Source: a virus
Strand: one strand, 5' to 3'
IMG/VR virus record: IMGVR_UViG_3300018080_000121
Coordinates: 32,001 to 96,000 of that record
DNA length: 64,000 nt
This document shows, piece by piece, positions 9,681 to 46,335 of this stretch (position 1 is the stretch's first letter; each line of letters opens with the position of its first letter). Below the pieces are notes generated by a model. It had not been told where the DNA came from, made no database searches, and saw only the letters and a list, made by a program, of their open reading frames with translations. A program made the position numbers and the translations under genes.

Positions 9681-9683
9681 AAT

Positions 9684-31711: not shown

Positions 31712-32022
31712 CCAACAGTAGTTCGACGTCATATATCTTGACGGATAAGGAAGGTAGAATTGATCCACAGGGTAAGATGTTGATCGATTTGAAGAAGCAA
31801 GCGGATCTGACTGTGATTACGACAGAGATCTTGGACGAAATTGAGAAAAATGGATTCTATAAAATTGGTCAGTATTCCAGAATTGAACTGGATGAAGGTG
31901 AACTTGAAAACGCCAGATTTGTGTTGTCGCACGGCGAGAAGGTTTACTGGATTGATGTATATGACGATCCAGCATGGTTTATTCCCAGTGGAGTAGTTGC
32001 TCAATGTGTAAATGATTATTAG
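31687..32022 (+). CDS. DFVTNSS-motif family protein (1)
   Basis: N-terminus MRKKADFVTNSSSTSY. Confidence 0.8.
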   Translation: MRKKADFVTNSSSTSYILTDKEGRIDPQGKMLIDLKKQADLTVITTEILDEIEKNGFYKIGQYSRIELDEGELENARFVLSHGEKVYWIDVYDDPAWFIPSGVVAQCVNDY

Positions 32023-39558: not shown

Positions 39559-42048
39559 ATGGAAGAGATTGTTATGAATCCATACTTTGCCAGCTTGGTA
39601 ATCTCTGATGAATCAAGCGACACTTCAGACAAAACTAAAAAAACATTCACTCCATTTAAACGGCTTAAATTGATAGATACGCCGGACTTTTTTCGTGGAA
39701 TGAATGGTACCCACATGGAGAGGGAAATTCTTCCGAGGAATTGCAGAATTGTACATGACCTTCCCAATACCAGTGAGAAAATAGTTGTTATTGAGGAAGA
39801 GCCGGGTGTCCGGAATCTGAGATTTGCTGTTGGATTCCAGGGGACTTTAGACTCGCTAAAAAATGCTGGTTATGATGATATGTACCAGTATCTCAGCGAA
39901 AATGTAAAGAGTAGAAATGGAGAATATACCTTGCAGGTGTCAATGCCATTTGTAGTAGTGGTTATGTTTATTCAAAACTACATTGCCACTTCAGTGCAAG
40001 TATTCTTTCGAATGCGACCCCTTACAAGTTATTCTGATTCTCTGTACTATGCAAACCTCCTCAACATTCCAGACAGTCAGTATATATGTCTTGGTAATCG
40101 ACCCCCAAGTTATCGTGAACCAGATAATCTCTATGATGCTTGTACTATTGAGCTTGAAAGATTCTGGAACACAGCATATAACATGGATTACTACCACAAC
40201 TACAAGATGTATGAGCGGGATGTTCCGGAAGTCTGTAATCCGCTTGTGTGGCATTATAATACTGTGATTGATCCCATGTTTATCTACACAGTTCCGTGGA
40301 TCATCTATCCTAAAACGATAGGTGAAACAATAGATGATATGGCGGGTGGTAGAACACAAGGAATCCCATCATACGACAAACTAAGGGAGATATTCTATCG
40401 ACCAATCAAAGCACAAACAAGACACAAAACCCACTATAAAAATACAGCTCAAGAGTTAGCTATTAAAAATAGTTACCTTTGTGTTGGGGATAACATTACA
40501 ATAGGAAAGAAAGAATACATTGTTGCATCTTTTGTCGGTACTCCTGGTCATAGACCTACGAGGGTAATCCTACAGGGTGCTGATGGGAAAACGACAGAAG
40601 TATCCATTACACAAAAATTCAAAAATGAAATCCAGAAGCAGAGATCTGCATCGAAAGAAGTCAAGTCGGTTCAGATTGGTGATCAGAAGATCAGTACCAA
40701 TGACTTGATTGTGATCAAGTCAAGATATGCTGGAAAGATTTTTAAGAAGGTACATGTAATTCGAGTCGCCAGAGATGGTAAAATAGAAGCAAGACTTGGT
40801 AGTGATTACTATCTTCTTGAGAATTTGGAATTCGATGTTGTGGATATGTCTAACGTTGAAGTTAACGGGATTAAGGTTGACGCAAATAAGACCTATGTTA
40901 TCCTGAAAGCGGATTATGGTCAAGGTCCTACGTTCCAAAAGTATGACGTAAAGCTTGACAGTTTTGATTCCAATGGGGCTAACATGAGAGCCTTGTTTAA
41001 GAATGTTATGACCGGAAGTAGGATTGCAATTGATCTAAATCCAACAGGTACGCCAGTATATAAGTTGTCGGATAGTAAAGACACTTATATAACACCTCCT
41101 GTATTTAGATATGCCGACTCTCTTGTAACCAACTGGAAAGACGGTGGTGTTGATGGTTATGGTCTCATTCCTGGTGAAGGAATAGTGGCCTACGATGGCG
41201 GTGGTTATTATAGAGATTATAAAAGGACTACCGCAAAGAGTAATATCCTGAGCGAGGATAAAACTGAGATTCATATTCCTAGCTTCGATGGAGATATTTA
41301 CTTCAAAGTTGGGGATGCTGTAGTTCATGCGGACTGGAACAATCCTGAGAACATGTTGAAAGTCTGCACTATTGCTCTGTTTAAAGAGCAACTTGGGTCG
41401 TTGTATATTGTCATGACGACTCTTGATGGAAAAGAAGTATTTGAAACCGAGTTCATTGATTTTGAACGAGGACGGATCAGACCTGGTACTGTCCGACACA
41501 TTGTAGCAAAATGGGATAAATGGAAAGCTGGTGATAAACTTAGAGCAAAAGTTGGTCGTATTCCAGCATTTCCAAAGAAGGATGTCAACACAATCGTTGG
41601 GTTCTTACCTGATACAGGTAGAGATATCCCTCAAATTTTGATGTCAAACGGGTGTACCCTCTGGATGGACGAAGAGACGATGAACAACTTTGAAGTCCTT
41701 CGTAGGGGAACAGCTGCTTGTGCAAAGCAGAAAAATGCTCCAATGCAACTGGACAAAATTAAGTGGCAACCGGGCGATCTGGTGGTAAGGGATGGTTCGA
41801 TTGGAATGATTAACCGGCATGAAGGAAGACGGTCCTTGAGAGTGACTGTTACTGAAAGGAGGGCAGGCTTTACGTACAATTATCCAACAAGGAAAAACTT
41901 AGTCAGGTATGGTTTCCTGATACCAAGACGGACGCAACAACATCAATACATGGGAACTGGATTTCCTGTATTTCCTAACTTCCATGGTTGGTATACTGTT
42001 GCGGAAAGGAGTCCAATGCATGTATCGGAGGACGTGAACAATGTTTAA
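39559..42048 (+). CDS. Prokaryotic E2 family D-like domain fused to repeated SH3/KOW-like barrels
   Basis: SMPFVVVV..VFFRMRPL..LYYANLLNIPDSQYICLG..FWNTAYNMD (cf. E2-D P..N....g.iC.G..Fw.s.fn); later repeated xxGDxV units; directly upstream of JAB, E1 and Ubl genes. Confidence 0.65.
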   Translation: MEEIVMNPYFASLVISDESSDTSDKTKKTFTPFKRLKLIDTPDFFRGMNGTHMEREILPRNCRIVHDLPNTSEKIVVIEEEPGVRNLRFAVGFQGTLDSLKNAGYDDMYQYLSENVKSRNGEYTLQVSMPFVVVVMFIQNYIATSVQVFFRMRPLTSYSDSLYYANLLNIPDSQYICLGNRPPSYREPDNLYDACTIELERFWNTAYNMDYYHNYKMYERDVPEVCNPLVWHYNTVIDPMFIYTVPWIIYPKTIGETIDDMAGGRTQGIPSYDKLREIFYRPIKAQTRHKTHYKNTAQELAIKNSYLCVGDNITIGKKEYIVASFVGTPGHRPTRVILQGADGKTTEVSITQKFKNEIQKQRSASKEVKSVQIGDQKISTNDLIVIKSRYAGKIFKKVHVIRVARDGKIEARLGSDYYLLENLEFDVVDMSNVEVNGIKVDANKTYVILKADYGQGPTFQKYDVKLDSFDSNGANMRALFKNVMTGSRIAIDLNPTGTPVYKLSDSKDTYITPPVFRYADSLVTNWKDGGVDGYGLIPGEGIVAYDGGGYYRDYKRTTAKSNILSEDKTEIHIPSFDGDIYFKVGDAVVHADWNNPENMLKVCTIALFKEQLGSLYIVMTTLDGKEVFETEFIDFERGRIRPGTVRHIVAKWDKWKAGDKLRAKVGRIPAFPKKDVNTIVGFLPDTGRDIPQILMSNGCTLWMDEETMNNFEVLRRGTAACAKQKNAPMQLDKIKWQPGDLVVRDGSIGMINRHEGRRSLRVTVTERRAGFTYNYPTRKNLVRYGFLIPRRTQQHQYMGTGFPVFPNFHGWYTVAERSPMHVSEDVNNV

Positions 42049-43219
42049 TGTATGGATCAACGACGGTACAACTGAAATGCCTACTGACGATATTCTATAT
42101 ATCGTAGCGAAAGATGGGATATTCTTAAAGAAGAAATTAGGTTTCTTTGAGAGTATTGCGAAAGTGGACCAAATGTCTATTTTGAAAGATGTAGATCCTT
42201 ATGCGACGATGGACATTAAACCAATACCAAGAAAGAAATTTGCTCAAATCATTTCATTCTATCGTGAAGTGGCTAAGCAATTTTCTGGTGAGGCGATGAC
42301 CATTTTACATTATAACCCGAAACGAAAAAGGTTTAGAATTGAAATCCCTGACCAGGAAGTTTCGGGTGGTGGTGTTGGATGGGAAAGTTTGGAAAGCTAC
42401 AAGGGTTATGTTCGAATCGGTTCAATTCATAGCCACAATCATATGTCCGCTTTCCACTCAGGAACGGATGATAACGACGAATTCAATTGGGATGGAATTC
42501 ATATCACGATTGGAAAAGTCGGGAATCCAAATGTTGACATTTCAGCGTCATTAGTGTTTAACGGAACCAGGTTCATGATTGACCCATGTGATTATGTAGA
42601 AGACTTGGAAATGGTAGAATCCGAGGCTTCATATGTAGGTCCAAAGACCTATAAATGGGAAGGTAATAAGCTGGTACCAGCAAACGACGCTGCTAAGAAA
42701 ACAGTTACATTAGGATATCGAATCAAAAATGAAAGGGCTAAGGAAAGGAAATTCCCTTCTACCTGGTTGAAGAATGTGAGTAAATGGATGCCGAGAACTC
42801 AACCAAATCAGGGAATTTATTCAGGTGGTGTCAATGGTATTGTTGGACCGGCTCGACAACCATGGCAGCATAATCCACATGGAAATCCTTATTGGGGAAG
42901 GTTCCATCAAGGTCGTCATAATGGTCGACAAGCTCTCTTGAGACGACAATTTAATACAGGAAATAATCATGATCAGGTCGCTGCTCAGGAAGGAGTCAGT
43001 TTTGACACAGCTTATGAACCCGGGGATCCAATGGATTGGGATCCATGTGAAAACTGTCCGTATTGCAACTATAAATCCAACCAGTTGCTTATGGATCTTA
43101 TTAACCAGTTGGATTTGGATGAGGACCAGTTAGCACAGCTTGGGCTTACTGAAGAAGAAGATGACAATCCATTAGCGGGTGAATACGATGGAGGTGAAGT
43201 GTATGTTGGGGGACCGTAG
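42041..43219 (+). CDS. JAB/MPN+ metalloprotease (prokaryotic deubiquitinase-like)
   Basis: YIVAKDGIF N-terminal motif, GEA, GSIHSHNHMSAFHSGTDDNDE (HxH-x7-S-x2-D). Confidence 0.9.
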   Translation: MFNVWINDGTTEMPTDDILYIVAKDGIFLKKKLGFFESIAKVDQMSILKDVDPYATMDIKPIPRKKFAQIISFYREVAKQFSGEAMTILHYNPKRKRFRIEIPDQEVSGGGVGWESLESYKGYVRIGSIHSHNHMSAFHSGTDDNDEFNWDGIHITIGKVGNPNVDISASLVFNGTRFMIDPCDYVEDLEMVESEASYVGPKTYKWEGNKLVPANDAAKKTVTLGYRIKNERAKERKFPSTWLKNVSKWMPRTQPNQGIYSGGVNGIVGPARQPWQHNPHGNPYWGRFHQGRHNGRQALLRRQFNTGNNHDQVAAQEGVSFDTAYEPGDPMDWDPCENCPYCNYKSNQLLMDLINQLDLDEDQLAQLGLTEEEDDNPLAGEYDGGEVYVGGP

Positions 43220-43898
43220 AATCAAAATTGTTGGATTGGGCGGAATCGGTTCTGCATTATGTGATAACCTATGCAGATTTCTAAACCATCAACCCACCCG
43301 CTGTAGACTTGTACTAATTGATGGTGATGACTACGAGATTAAAAATAAAGCTCGCCAGTCATTTAATCAGTTGGGAAACAAGGCGAGGGTAAAATGTACA
43401 GAAATGAGATTGTCCCATGAGAATATCTCGTTTGACGATGTTGCTGAATATCTAACACCGTCAAATATTGGGGAGTACATTCAAGAAGATGACGTTGTGT
43501 TTCTGTGTGTAGATAACCATAAAACGAGAAAAGTGGTTTCTGATCATGCAAAGACACTTGAAAACGTTATTGTGATTTCTGGTGGTAATGAATACACAGA
43601 CGGAAATGTGCAAATCTTTATTAGAGAAGGAGGTGAAAATAAAACACCGTCGTTGTCAGATTACCATCCGGAGATCGCCCACCCTGGTGATAAGTCACCA
43701 GATGAAATGAGCTGTGAAGAGTTGGCGAACTCTGAGCCACAATTGTTATTTGCAAATCTTTCTGTGGCTACAATTATGTGTTGGACTTTCTACAATATTC
43801 TTGAAGGAAAGTTGGCGCAGAACAGCTCAGAAGTATATTTCGACATGTTGAAAATGAATACGCTAGCAAAACAACGAAAACCTAGAGCTCAAAAGTAA
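43203..43898 (+). CDS. ThiF/E1-like activating enzyme
   Basis: VGLGGIGS, LIDGDDYEIKNKARQ, FLCVDNHKTR, ISGGN, candidate catalytic Cys in MSCEE..PQL..AN; ATG at 43203 after GGAGGTGA. Confidence 0.92.
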   Translation: MLGDRRIKIVGLGGIGSALCDNLCRFLNHQPTRCRLVLIDGDDYEIKNKARQSFNQLGNKARVKCTEMRLSHENISFDDVAEYLTPSNIGEYIQEDDVVFLCVDNHKTRKVVSDHAKTLENVIVISGGNEYTDGNVQIFIREGGENKTPSLSDYHPEIAHPGDKSPDEMSCEELANSEPQLLFANLSVATIMCWTFYNILEGKLAQNSSEVYFDMLKMNTLAKQRKPRAQK

Positions 43899-43913
43899 GG
43901 AGGATTGAAACAA

Positions 43914-44396
43914 ATGGGTACATTTAAAAGAGAGACATTGGAAGCTAAGACGGTTGTGGAACTCAGGGACATTCTTCGCAAGAAACAAATTAAAGGGATG
44001 ATGAAGAAACCCAAGAGACAAATTATCAATGCGATCATGGATTCCCAGAAGGGTGCGGTTCCTGCAGCTGCAGTGGCGAAACCTTCCAAAGCTTCTCCCA
44101 AGTCCACTGGACCGGTTACCAAAATGTCTCTGACAATGGACAGTGAATTGACGAAGCCTGGTGCTCGATTCGGTAACAGAACCAAGACGACCGTCCGTGT
44201 TTCCTGTGGTGCTTCTTCTGGTGACTTTCCGGTTTGCGGTAAGAGCGTCGGCGCTGTTGCGAACTTCCTGCGCGAAGTCCTCAATGTCGATAAGCTCGCT
44301 GAGGGTCTTGTCAACGGTGAAAAAGTCTCTGAGGACTATGTTCTCCGTGAAGGGGATACCCTCGAATACATCAAACCTGCTGGCCGCAAGGGCTAG
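43914..44396 (+). CDS. Ubiquitin-like (beta-grasp) protein with N-terminal Rho_N/HeH-like domain, ends in Gly
   Basis: N-term LEAKTVVELRDILRKKQIKGMMKKPKRQIINAI; C-term VRVSCG..SVGAV..LVNGEKVSEDYVLREGDTLEYIKPAGRKG-stop. Confidence 0.85.
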   Translation: MGTFKRETLEAKTVVELRDILRKKQIKGMMKKPKRQIINAIMDSQKGAVPAAAVAKPSKASPKSTGPVTKMSLTMDSELTKPGARFGNRTKTTVRVSCGASSGDFPVCGKSVGAVANFLREVLNVDKLAEGLVNGEKVSEDYVLREGDTLEYIKPAGRKG

Positions 44397-44406
44397 AGCG
44401 TAGTTA

Positions 44407-44432
44407 GTGGGGGTGGGGAAACTCACCCCCAC
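44407..44432 (+). promoter_or_regulatory. GC-rich 11-bp hairpin with GAAA tetraloop after the Ubl gene, no U-tract
   Basis: GTGGGGGTGGG-GAAA-CTCACCCCCAC (one G.U); followed directly by the next RBS. Confidence 0.7.
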
Positions 44433-44449
44433 ATCCCGGAGGTGAAAAC

Positions 44450-44989
44450 ATGGAAGAAGAAGTTCGAGTGGTCGAGGAAACTGATGAGCACTATTTAATT
44501 GAGAAGTTAGATGGATCAATGGTGAAGGCTTATAAGATTGACCAGCGAGATATTGTTGCGGCTCATATAGCTGGAGTTAATAAAATCGCAAAAGCTTTAG
44601 AACCAAGAGATGTAATGCATCTCGTTCATCTTATTGAAAATATTCTGAATTTTGAACCGACGATTTCAGAGTATTTGGATATGGCTACGAATCTTGGTAA
44701 TGTTATTGGTGACCTCTACGATAGAGTTGGAAATCCAAATCTTTTACATCATCCACATAAAAACATACACCCGGAATGTTATGGAACTGCACAGACTCTT
44801 AGAGATGAATGTGTCAAGCTGCTAAAGTTATTGTGGGAGGTGTTAGAAGAGCAAGAGAGAGGAAATCGTATTGGCGACGTGAGATATAGTGTAGCTGAAA
44901 TGACCAGGATAGTACTTTATGTTGCTAACCATCAAATTAAGTTCTCAAGACAAAGAGAGTGTACATATACGACAACAAAAATCTCTTGA
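44450..44989 (+). CDS. Hypothetical helical protein inside the Ubl cluster
   Basis: 179 aa with GGAGGTG RBS. Confidence 0.7.
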   Translation: MEEEVRVVEETDEHYLIEKLDGSMVKAYKIDQRDIVAAHIAGVNKIAKALEPRDVMHLVHLIENILNFEPTISEYLDMATNLGNVIGDLYDRVGNPNLLHHPHKNIHPECYGTAQTLRDECVKLLKLLWEVLEEQERGNRIGDVRYSVAEMTRIVLYVANHQIKFSRQRECTYTTTKIS

Positions 44990-45029: not shown

Positions 45030-45920
45030 ATGGCGAATAGTATCGTTGTAATCGGGTTAGGCTCGCTGGGAGGTTTCTTTGCAGAAAATATCTCAAAGCT
45101 TGACGGGGTGAAACGCCTCATTCTTGTTGACCCGGATATTGTCGAGAAGAAAAATCTGAAAAATTCTATTTACAGAAAGAGAGATGTTGGAAAAGGAAAG
45201 GTTGATGCGCTTGCTGATATTCTAGAATTCAGTCTAGATGGGAGCATCGAAATCATAAAAATCTTTAAGGAGTTTAAGGAGGGAGAGACACAACTACCAG
45301 AAGCAGATTTGGTGTTTGATTGTAGGGATGTTCTATGTAGCAGGGGTGGTTACATAGATGTGAAGATGTACATTTCTTTCCGAACGTTAGTCGTCGACTG
45401 TCAAAAACATGTTAATATTCCAAACACACGACGTGGAAGATATGTAGACCATGTTACCAAGAATGATATTCGAAATGCAGCATTTAACGCATTTCTTCTA
45501 GTGTATAGTAAGAAGATTTATGATTTGATGCGACAACAGACAGTACATACAATCCAGTTGGACGATTATCGAGAAGGTGTAAACCAAAGTCTTGAGTTGG
45601 TACAGAGTAAAAATGACTTGGTATATGAAAGTCAGAATGGAGAAGAGAAATTAGTAAATCTCCATGAGAATCTAGTACCAATTCTTGAAGCCAATAAAAA
45701 ACAGGATCTGAATGTGATTATTGGTGAAAAGCAAAATGTTTCACAAAAGTTAATGAAAATTCCATGTTCTGAGATGAGGGACCAATTCGACGTGATTAGG
45801 GTTTTCTCTGAGTTAGCAAGGAACATTCCATTGTCGTATGATAGGTATCTAATTCGAGTATTATATCTAAAGAAGGAAGGTATATATATCGAATTGCTAC
45901 CCAGCACAGGAGCTGCATAA
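45030..45920 (+). CDS. Second ThiF/E1-like protein with C-terminal extension
   Basis: VIGLGSLGG, LVDPDIVEKKNL, DVGKGKV, VFDCRD; lacks the canonical NxxRQ Arg-Gln. Confidence 0.85.
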   Translation: MANSIVVIGLGSLGGFFAENISKLDGVKRLILVDPDIVEKKNLKNSIYRKRDVGKGKVDALADILEFSLDGSIEIIKIFKEFKEGETQLPEADLVFDCRDVLCSRGGYIDVKMYISFRTLVVDCQKHVNIPNTRRGRYVDHVTKNDIRNAAFNAFLLVYSKKIYDLMRQQTVHTIQLDDYREGVNQSLELVQSKNDLVYESQNGEEKLVNLHENLVPILEANKKQDLNVIIGEKQNVSQKLMKIPCSEMRDQFDVIRVFSELARNIPLSYDRYLIRVLYLKKEGIYIELLPSTGAA

Positions 45921-45921
45921 A

Positions 45922-46335
45922 ATGGGAGAACAATTCACAGTTGAGGTGAATAGTCCGATAGTCCCTGTTTCACTTATCTGGAATCAACAACTTTATGAGA
46001 TTGTCGGCGTTCACCCAAGTTATGTGATGAATAAATATACAGTACACGTCGACGACTCTAGAAACATTACGGAATTGTACATCTGGAACTCGTTCCACCC
46101 AAACGCAGGCAATGCAACCAATGAACAAGTTCCTATTTCACAACCGCCGAGAATGAGTAAGTTCTGTTTACCACCAGAGTTAATAGGAACTCATTTTGAG
46201 CTTCCTGATACTACTTACTTTTTAGAGCAATTTGTTCTAAATCGGTGGTACCTTGATAATCCACATCACTATCCAAATCCTATCCATTACAAAACTGAAC
46301 CAGACATAGGAGGGCAACATGTTGGGAGAATTTGA
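45922..46335 (+). CDS. E2/UBC-like protein (HPN..C motif)
   Basis: SFHPNAG..SKFCLPP resembles the E2 HPN(I)..(I)CL signature with a loop insertion; adjacent to the second E1. Confidence 0.55.
   Translation: MGEQFTVEVNSPIVPVSLIWNQQLYEIVGVHPSYVMNKYTVHVDDSRNITELYIWNSFHPNAGNATNEQVPISQPPRMSKFCLPPELIGTHFELPDTTYFLEQFVLNRWYLDNPHHYPNPIHYKTEPDIGGQHVGRI

Follow-up and report, generated by a model that had tools for sequence, protein, structure and literature searches.

The ubiquitin-like protein (Ubl) systems known so far in bacteria act against phages (PMC10557695, PMC10097602). Their cellular operons bring together a Ubl, an E1, an E2 and a JAB peptidase, which in these systems exposes the reactive C terminus of the modifier, and the N-terminal additions reported for bacterial Ubls by Gong et al. 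comprise coiled coils, N/G-rich tails and DUF1508, with HeH/Rho_N domains absent from that list. A related set is found in the PRTRC-type cassettes of plasmids and integrative and conjugative elements, assigned to class 6d by Iyer et al. in 2006 (PMC1779556), which carry Prok-E2_D, the JAB peptidase PRTRC_A, PRTRC ThiF and a small Ubl. Phages also encode the Ubl of the Lambda/T1 tail-assembly protein I type (PMC1779556), a beta-grasp protein whose C-terminal Gly is conserved and which is associated with a JAB. Here we analyse a putative modifier gene (P0001) in a stretch of 64,000 nucleotides (the window), corresponding to positions 32,001 to 96,000 of the IMG/VR virus record IMGVR_UViG_3300018080_000121. 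Its product is a beta-grasp protein preceded by a helix-extended loop-helix (HeH) head, and it is encoded among candidate E1, E2 and JAB genes. The locus shares the grouping of Ubl, E1, E2 and JAB with the cellular systems, some of which have been shown to be anti-phage, but here the genes are phage-borne. It shares the E2 family D (E2-D) protein, JAB and minimal E1 with PRTRC cassettes, from which it differs by its phage location, the headed Ubl and an extra E1/E2 pair. Contrary to this locus, the Lambda/T1 type has no E1 or E2, belongs to a tail-assembly context, and has its extra domain after the Ubl rather than before it.

The source of the window is a 121-kb mReC contig with a CheckV completeness of 39%, and several of the related loci are likewise listed as mReC (Weinheimer and Aylward 2020, PMC7481178). 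That study never mentions ubiquitin or JAB and names ThiF just in its annotation table. No phage Ubl system is described in the jumbo-phage survey of the Aravind group or in a 2026 review, and our literature searches turned up no report of either a phage-encoded Ubl conjugation system or the presence of this cassette in mReC phages. We consider it reasonably probable that the product of this gene is the modifier in a putative phage-borne Ubl conjugation system, which would be a core module of the large, uncultured phages that make up the mReC clade, with the HeH arm as a localising or tethering payload on the targets. The clade probably runs a protein-tagging system of its own.

The first-pass annotation of this DNA, made from the letters alone, had described a protein with a HeH/Rho_N-like domain, a linker and a beta-grasp domain. 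Its coordinates and quoted residues match the sequence exactly and its three-part plan holds, the C-terminal part being now divided into a 20-aa extension and a 68-aa core (Table 1). The structure prediction that it had proposed, an AlphaFold model built on an alignment of 36 relatives, consists of a confident three-helix head (residues 6-11, 14-24 and 34-45, with pLDDT >90), a linker disordered from residue 46 to about 72, and a domain with the order beta-beta-alpha-beta-beta-beta. The protein ends in ...KPAGRKG, with zero residues between Gly160 and the stop codon. In all 36 close relatives, extension and core together measure exactly 88 aa, whereas the head ranges from 42 to 49 aa and the linker from 18 to 68 aa. 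Conservation reaches 49% in the head versus 29% in the linker, whose composition across the family includes 19% A, 13% G and 12% K. The extension (residues 73-92) is restricted to headed forms; since the stand-alone relatives of 68-77 aa do without it, the true core is residues 93-160.

A word-indexed search returned 364 homologues of near length, each aligned full length, and a profile of the C-terminal 88 residues recovered 1300 cluster representatives at E<=1e-3, of which 333 reach 1e-10. Among the best 150 of the 1300 representatives, 75 combine one head with one Ubl, 14 carry two heads and one Ubl, 44 have no detectable head (about ten of these being bare proteins of 68-77 aa), and 16 are tandem Ubls (nine double, six triple and one quadruple). 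The search for HeH-Ubl fusions elsewhere, another proposal of the first-pass annotation, thus finds the head in 89 of these 150 proteins. Its conservation as a module, doubled in 14 of them, suggests that the head is a functional unit.

The identity of the head is borne out by both relatives and structure. Pfam Rho_N (PF07498) matches residues 9-45 of the window protein at E 1.7e-3, with 18.7 bits against a gathering cut-off of 24.9, which this protein does not reach even though relatives pass it. The same model matches 69 of 120 relatives at E<=0.01 (best 2.3e-13), SAP matches two, and precomputed PF07498 matches are also present among the near-length homologues. In an all-against-all structural search, the top match of the head was residues 1-47 of Rho (1a62_A; Z 8.2, rmsd 2.8, 47 aligned), followed at Z 4-6 by the SAP domains of FAN1, Ku70, PIAS1, SLX4 and DEK and the LEM domains of emerin/LAP2, so that model and search agree on a HeH fold. 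The head has the sequence motif L..L...(G)I.G..K..K..(I/L)I.AI; its G..KK.K loop is conserved, as are G28, K31 and K34. Both fold and motif are common to the N-terminal bundle of Rho and to SAP, LEM and HeH domains; contrary to these, the phage head is fused to a putatively conjugatable beta-grasp. Judging from its fold, charge, conservation and two-head variants, one may speculate that the basic head gives conjugates an affinity for DNA, RNA or a partner.

Regarding the C-terminal domain, the Pfam families other than those of the head that match at least three of the 120 relatives at E<=0.01 are TGS (56), ThiS (24) and Ub-Mut7C (3), all of them beta-grasp domains in the ubiquitin clan; DUF7440 matches two relatives and DEK_C one. 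The domain also matches a ThiS cluster of the ESM Atlas, at TM 0.79 across residues 88-159, and with the strand order these results agree on a beta-grasp. The best-conserved stretches of the family are the loop VSCGASSG.FPV.GK and the terminus KPAG.KG, with Lys159, Gly160 and the G.KG terminus invariant. The loop (residues 96-110, window 44199-44243) lies between strand 2 and the helix, and its conservation equals that of the C terminus. Its Cys98 is kept in at least 90% of sequences, its pLDDT is below 50, and its counterpart reads CGAN in the stand-alone relatives and SGVN in the poly-Ubls. A tblastn search of 50,697 GenBank phage records with the Ubl gave zero matches, and its family is in none of PHROGs, PADLOC and NCBIfam.

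The terminal Gly is exposed as encoded in the window gene, whereas relatives add one to five residues or another repeat after it. The C-terminal ends of the 120 nearest database proteins are KGC (60), KG (56), KGF (2), KGV (1) and KGQ (1), and the 81 viral loci comprise 50 uncapped forms, 22 with a Cys cap and nine with other short tails, some of which repeat RKG. Several database proteins (P0123, P0124, P0165, P0172, P0155, P0214 and P0248) are poly-Ubls of two to four head-to-tail 68-aa units, each ending in ...G.KG and joining the next without a linker, with a short tail after the final unit; P0123 has four such units, with junctions directly after ...AGKKG, and a five-residue tail. The first-pass statement that there is no pro-peptide is therefore right for the window gene but does not hold throughout the family, as 64 of the 120 nearest relatives and 31 of the 81 viral loci have residues after KG. 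Its argument that the JAB peptidase would act as an eraser because no maturation is needed is not supported in that form, given caps in about half of the close relatives and poly-Ubl repeats ending in KG. Since caps and poly-Ubl units are joined after KG, a peptidase cutting at that point would belong to the system as a property of the family, in which the JAB would probably be a maturase as well as an eraser. The uncapped state of the window gene is one variant within the family and would be a derived one.

Human UBB carries an extra C-terminal Cys and UBC an extra Val, following the precursor logic of polyubiquitin. The family resembles these eukaryotic precursors by its one-residue caps (C, F, V or Q) in about half of the close relatives and its linkerless 68-aa repeats in distant ones. 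It differs in ending with KG instead of GG and in its likely processing enzyme, a JAMM peptidase. The polyubiquitin-like arrangement is found in relatives, and not in the window gene, which is a single copy ending at Gly160. Two headed Ubls, P0154 and P0246, run past KG into a Lys/Ala-rich basic extension of 67-75 aa, which recalls ubiquitin-ribosomal protein fusions, a lost stop codon being an equally possible origin. Scans of viral sequences with P0123, P0124 and P0208 gave zero matches, and a metagenome scan for the context of distant relatives returned a spurious NusA match and one contig of 1.3 kb.

The genes around the Ubl form a cassette on one strand, in the order radical SAM, WYL_2, a 121-aa open reading frame (ORF), an 829-aa E2-D fusion, JAB, a first E1 (E1a), Ubl, an optional gene, a second ThiF-like protein (E1b), a small E2 with an HPN motif, and the RNA polymerase (RNAP) subunits beta' and beta. 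This order is kept in every one of the 80 IMG/VR loci reaching far enough. The conservation of enzyme residues was assessed over about 70 non-redundant loci (Table 1), and a predicted cognate E1, E2 with a catalytic Cys and deconjugating peptidase are encoded by adjacent syntenic genes with conserved catalytic residues. The optional gene, present here as a 179-aa reading frame, encodes an HP..N..HPEC stretch with a faint resemblance to an E2 active site.

Table 1. Features of the window and of the cassettes of the candidate phyla radiation (CPR); window positions unless a locus is named
Feature	Location	Strand	Details
Ubl gene (P0001)	43914..44396	+	ATG at 43914, TAG at 44394-44396; 160 aa, 17.2 kDa, pI 9.9
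Shine-Dalgarno AAGGAGG	43897..43903	+	10 nt ahead of Ubl ATG; overlaps E1a stop codon
HeH / Rho_N / SAP-type head	43923..44051	+	residues 4-46; pI 10.5, net charge +8
Flexible, variable linker	44052..44129	+	residues 47-72; rich in A/G/K/P/S; pLDDT <50; charge +4
Conserved 20-aa extension	44130..44189	+	residues 73-92; S77, T80, P82, G87 nearly invariant; charge +2
Beta-grasp core, 68 aa	44190..44393	+	residues 93-160; acidic, pI 5.3; loop VSCGASSG.FPV.GK, terminus KPAG.KG
3' stem-loop	44407..44432	+	11 bp (one G-U), GAAA tetraloop, -23.8 kcal/mol, no U-tract
829-aa protein with weak Prok-E2_D region	39559..42048	+	Cys177 95% conserved; candidate E2/E3
JAB/JAMM peptidase	42041..43219	+	invariant E84, H130-S-H132, S140, D143; nearest family PRTRC_A, under cut-off
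E1a, minimal ThiF-type E1	43179..43898	+	GxGGxG, R59-Q60, D112 and Cys179 invariant
179-aa gene after hairpin	44450..44989		matches no family; in just 16/81 related loci
E1b, second ThiF-like protein	45030..45920	+	GxGxxG and D97-C98-R99 invariant; in all 80 viral loci
137-aa UBC-like E2	45922..46335	+	invariant H59-P60-N61 and Cys82; in 79/81 loci (iterated hidden Markov model search)
CPR cassette, Ca. Falkowbacteria	L091:4035-8216		220-kb contig of a metagenome-assembled genome (MAG)
CPR cassette, Ca. Moraniibacteriota	L092:5599-8207		80-kb MAG contig
CPR cassette, unclassified bacterium	L090:4771-8207		MAG contig

In the mechanism that we propose, E1a would adenylate Gly160 and load the tag onto its own Cys179, from where an E2 would take it over, through Cys82 if this is the HPN E2 or Cys177 if it is the E2-D fusion, for final attachment to lysines of target proteins. 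The JAMM peptidase would cut after KG, removing conjugates and, in relatives, trimming the one-residue cap or splitting poly-Ubl precursors. With a basic HeH arm built into the tag, every target would gain on conjugation a handle of nucleic-acid-binding type or for binding a partner, and such an arm would fit a mark for localisation or tethering better than one for degradation. A bolder version, in which a giant-phage clade has a complete Ubl pathway beside its RNA polymerase, with polyubiquitin-style caps and a DNA/RNA-binding head that tethers host or phage proteins ('HeH-ylation') instead of degrading them, is put forward only tentatively and strikes us as rather doubtful. If true, this tethering pathway would be the first conjugation system of a prokaryote virus and would bring a new logic for Ubls, namely covalent tethering to nucleic acid rather than a mark for degradation.

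Several points weigh against a conjugated, tethering tag. Conjugates, thioesters and binding of the head to nucleic acid are predicted from genes and models; the terminus is KG rather than GG; and the presence of two E1-like and two E2-like proteins leaves more than one possible relay. Heads of the Rho_N type also mediate protein contacts, a nucleic-acid tether being thus one reading among others. The window protein itself lies under the Pfam cut-offs for Rho_N, TGS and ThiS (15.3 bits versus 22.5 for the last). The PDB fold matches of the core obtained with Foldseek and VIA-align are weak and mixed (RCK_C Z 5.0, MoaD 4.2, ubiquitin-like 3.9, SAMP1 3.4), RCK_C domains scoring as high as MoaD or ubiquitin, and a profile search of PDB sequences with the Ubl recovered just a local FHA-like motif and Rho. 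For this reason, the beta-grasp assignment draws on sequence profiles, the match in the ESM Atlas, the order of secondary structure and the genomic context.

The ThiS matches of the core would also suit a sulfur carrier of the ThiS/MoaD type, for which E1a would make a C-terminal thiocarboxylate serving the thiolation of a nucleic acid or cofactor, with the head binding the nucleic-acid substrate and the JAB removing the cap as in QbsD/QbsE or Mec+/CysO. By E-value, the best NCBIfam matches of E1a are the ThiF and MoeB models, synteny with a radical SAM gene 5 kb upstream is conserved, and Cys is the commonest cap. However, the cassette contains two E2-like proteins with conserved cysteines, one of them with a full HPN motif, and no candidate sulfur-transfer partner, whether rhodanese, cysteine desulfurase, ThiG/MoaE-type protein or thiouridylase, turned up when the stretch between the radical SAM gene and the HPN E2, both included, was put through Pfam, PHROGs and NCBIfam scans. 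These scans covered the 829-aa protein, the JAB, both E1s, the Ubl, the 179-aa and 137-aa proteins, the radical SAM and WYL_2 proteins and the 121-aa ORF. The KG terminus is not the GG of this class, to which the protein could not be assigned, and poly-Ubls and very high expression are foreign to sulfur carriers, so that we give this explanation the lowest weight of all and regard it as very unlikely.

Returning to the conjugation system, its likeness to PRTRC cassettes is clear in the enzymes without amounting to membership. In NCBIfam, the JAB matches PRTRC_A at 4.9e-11 with 42.6 bits versus a cut-off of 101.8, and a full-length match of E1a to PRTRC_ThiF at 6e-11 has 42.1 bits versus 144.75. 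The best plasmid matches of E1a are annotated as PRTRC ThiF and adjoin E2 family D proteins. The cut-offs of the PRTRC families (TIGR03735-03742) are not reached, and the Ubl has neither an NCBIfam match, hence no PRTRC_C, nor a match to Pfam Prok_Ub. The small ORF beside a PRTRC ThiF on a Vibrio plasmid has no terminal Gly.

The closest cassettes in cellular genomes come from CPR bacteria, and share with the window the order of a large E2-D protein, a JAB, a ThiF protein and a Ubl of 70-83 aa ending in KG (Table 1). Their E1 is 47% identical to E1a over 224 aa, their Ubl core, which ends in KPAG.KG, shows 50% identity with the window core over 68 aa, and the JAB of the window matches the CPR JAB at E 1e-38 to 1e-41. 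On these similarities, CPR bacteria are the closest cellular relatives of the phage system, and their cassettes, for which we found no description in the literature, may hint at the donor or host range of mReC phages. Contrary to the phage cassette, they have no HeH head, linker, extension, E1b, HPN E2 or polymerase genes, and adjoin iPGM or YchF housekeeping genes. The absence of head, extension and E1b/HPN E2 from CPR cassettes would make these parts additions of the phage lineage, which, as the aligned sequences show, has apparently joined a basic N-terminal arm of head, linker and extension to a 68-aa core held in common.

The co-occurrence seen in this comparison underlies the main rival to a tethering payload, in which the tag is still conjugated and the arm is a docking or localising handle. 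Head and extension would then recruit the free tag to E1b/E2, or bring the tagging to phage DNA or close to the RNAP, thereby selecting substrates. Head, extension, E1b and HPN E2 occur together in all the viral loci and are missing together from the otherwise close CPR cassettes, and the cassette always lies directly upstream of RNAP beta'/beta. Such co-occurrence, however, compares one clade with three cellular loci and is phylogenetically confounded, and the two-head variants are easier to explain by binding valency. We therefore judge docking to be unlikely, though deserving of more weight than the remaining rivals.

The Ubl, which in the favoured reading is a payload-bearing tag, is apparently made in large amounts. 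The first-pass annotation had taken the C-ending codons of the 3' half and the 11-bp GAAA hairpin without U-tract as consistent with high expression. Codon counts and folding confirm both features, and the claim is strengthened by the conservation of codon bias, strong Shine-Dalgarno (SD) sequence and 3' stem-loop over about 80 loci of differing sequence. The window gene has a GC content of 0.50 (0.51 at third codon positions, GC3). The share of C at third positions (C3) is 0.34-0.38 in its 3' part versus a genome mean of 0.137 (sd 0.055), and that of A (A3) is 0.10-0.12 in the 3' part and 0.17 in the whole gene versus about 0.3 in the neighbours. In 81 of 81 loci, the GC content of the Ubl gene exceeds that of its own locus by more than 5 points (mean 0.45 versus 0.32, at the extreme 0.62 versus 0.28), and in 66 of 81 no other ORF of 100 aa or longer within 6 kb reaches its C3. 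Since the GC offset follows the composition of each genome, it points to selection in place and not to foreign origin; recent transfer from a GC-rich donor was rejected as its cause, since none of the 81 loci lacks the offset, however much they vary in base composition. When the loci are taken together, 97% of the Ubl genes have an SD match of 5 nt or more, compared with 55% of other ORFs.

The stem-loop of the window lies 10 nt past the Ubl stop codon and 17 nt ahead of the next ATG, and ranks third of just 20 hairpins of such strength in the 121-kb contig. A strong 3' stem-loop is present in 69 of 70 distinct sequences (mean -22 kcal/mol, median 14 nt past the stop), with unrelated stem sequences. 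Tetraloops close 42 of the 70, most often UUCG (11), GAAA (6) and UCCG (5), and in 63 of the 70 G-U pairs make the sense strand fold more stably than its complement. A canonical intrinsic terminator is unlikely, as a U-rich tail follows in just six of 70 loci, and Rfam gave zero matches at 44407-44432. Most likely the stem-loop provides a 3' end that is stable or arises by processing, or else acts on the phage polymerase as a terminator. A 218-codon antisense ORF (43863-44519, - strand) was rejected as a gene, since frames of at least 150 codons occur there in just 18 of 81 loci and track GC (r 0.54); this frame is a side effect of GC-rich codon usage.

Such signs of high dosage, together with the basic head and the position beside the RNAP, would also be expected of an abundant non-covalent factor, for instance a nucleoid or polymerase accessory protein, whose beta-grasp would be an interaction domain while E1, E2 and JAB act on something else. 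Even though a good many beta-grasp and TGS domains never undergo conjugation, the best-conserved features here are those of a conjugatable tag, that is, the terminal G.KG, the removable caps and the repeats with KG junctions, and CPR cassettes reduce the protein to a bare 70-aa core that ends in KG beside an E1 and a JAB. A purely non-covalent role is thus highly improbable.

High dosage is likewise a point in favour of a counter-defence decoy, by which the phage would flood the cell with Ubl and enzymes to jam or redirect host Ubl immunity, such as Bil or Cap2/Cap3 of the cyclic-oligonucleotide-based antiphage signalling system (CBASS), given that known bacterial Ubl systems act against phages. 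PADLOC gave weak matches of E1a and E1b to BilD and Cap2-type E1-E2 models (E1a-BilD 2.4e-6). No PADLOC model was matched by the Ubl, JAB or E2 proteins, and no BilA, BilB or BilC match appeared, so that the locus cannot be placed in Type II Bil (BilABCD) on this one weak E1a-BilD match. All 80 loci have the cassette as a fixed core module whose synteny with the polymerase genes never changes, unlike anti-defence genes with their usually patchy distribution, and a decoy is accordingly improbable.

Taken as a phage-owned tagging system fixed beside the polymerase, the cassette would reverse the roles of the characterised bacterial Ubl systems (CBASS Cap2/3 and Bil), which serve the cell against the phage. 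Its modifier shows domain accretion, precursor logic in the form of caps and tandem repeats, and signs of bulk expression, which together suggest an abundant modification with a localising function. Through the common cassette, the system also links the orphan mReC phage clade to CPR bacteria, a lead to its host or donor. Public MAGs that bear the labels 'Thermoplasmatales archaeon' and 'uncultured bacterium' include mReC contigs (L089 and L088), a placement that is likely mis-binning and not evidence of the host.

A route to experiments is offered by the cultured 187-kb Vibrio phages D69, D181 and D148, in which a related set of E2-D, JAB and E1 is encoded in the same order as in the window. 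About 1 kb upstream of this set, D69 (L095:1385-2176; also D181 and D148) encodes a 263-aa protein with three repeats, each ending in TGTKG. This triple repeat was considered as a homologue of the window core and rejected, as homology is not detectable beyond the terminal motif (hhalign probability 0.7%).

Elsewhere in the source genome, a DUF932 gene outside the window (L001:6403-7473; genome 102403-103473) has a GC content of 0.50, a GC3 of 0.55 and a C3 of 0.27, with a strong hairpin (-25 kcal/mol) about 150 nt downstream, and probably joins the Ubl gene in being expressed at a very high level. Strong sense-strand hairpins are few in the 121-kb contig; they are found at window positions 9681, 22301 and 59437 and at genome positions 97197, 103621 and 105001, several of them just past gene ends, and may indicate where the most abundant transcripts have their 3' ends.

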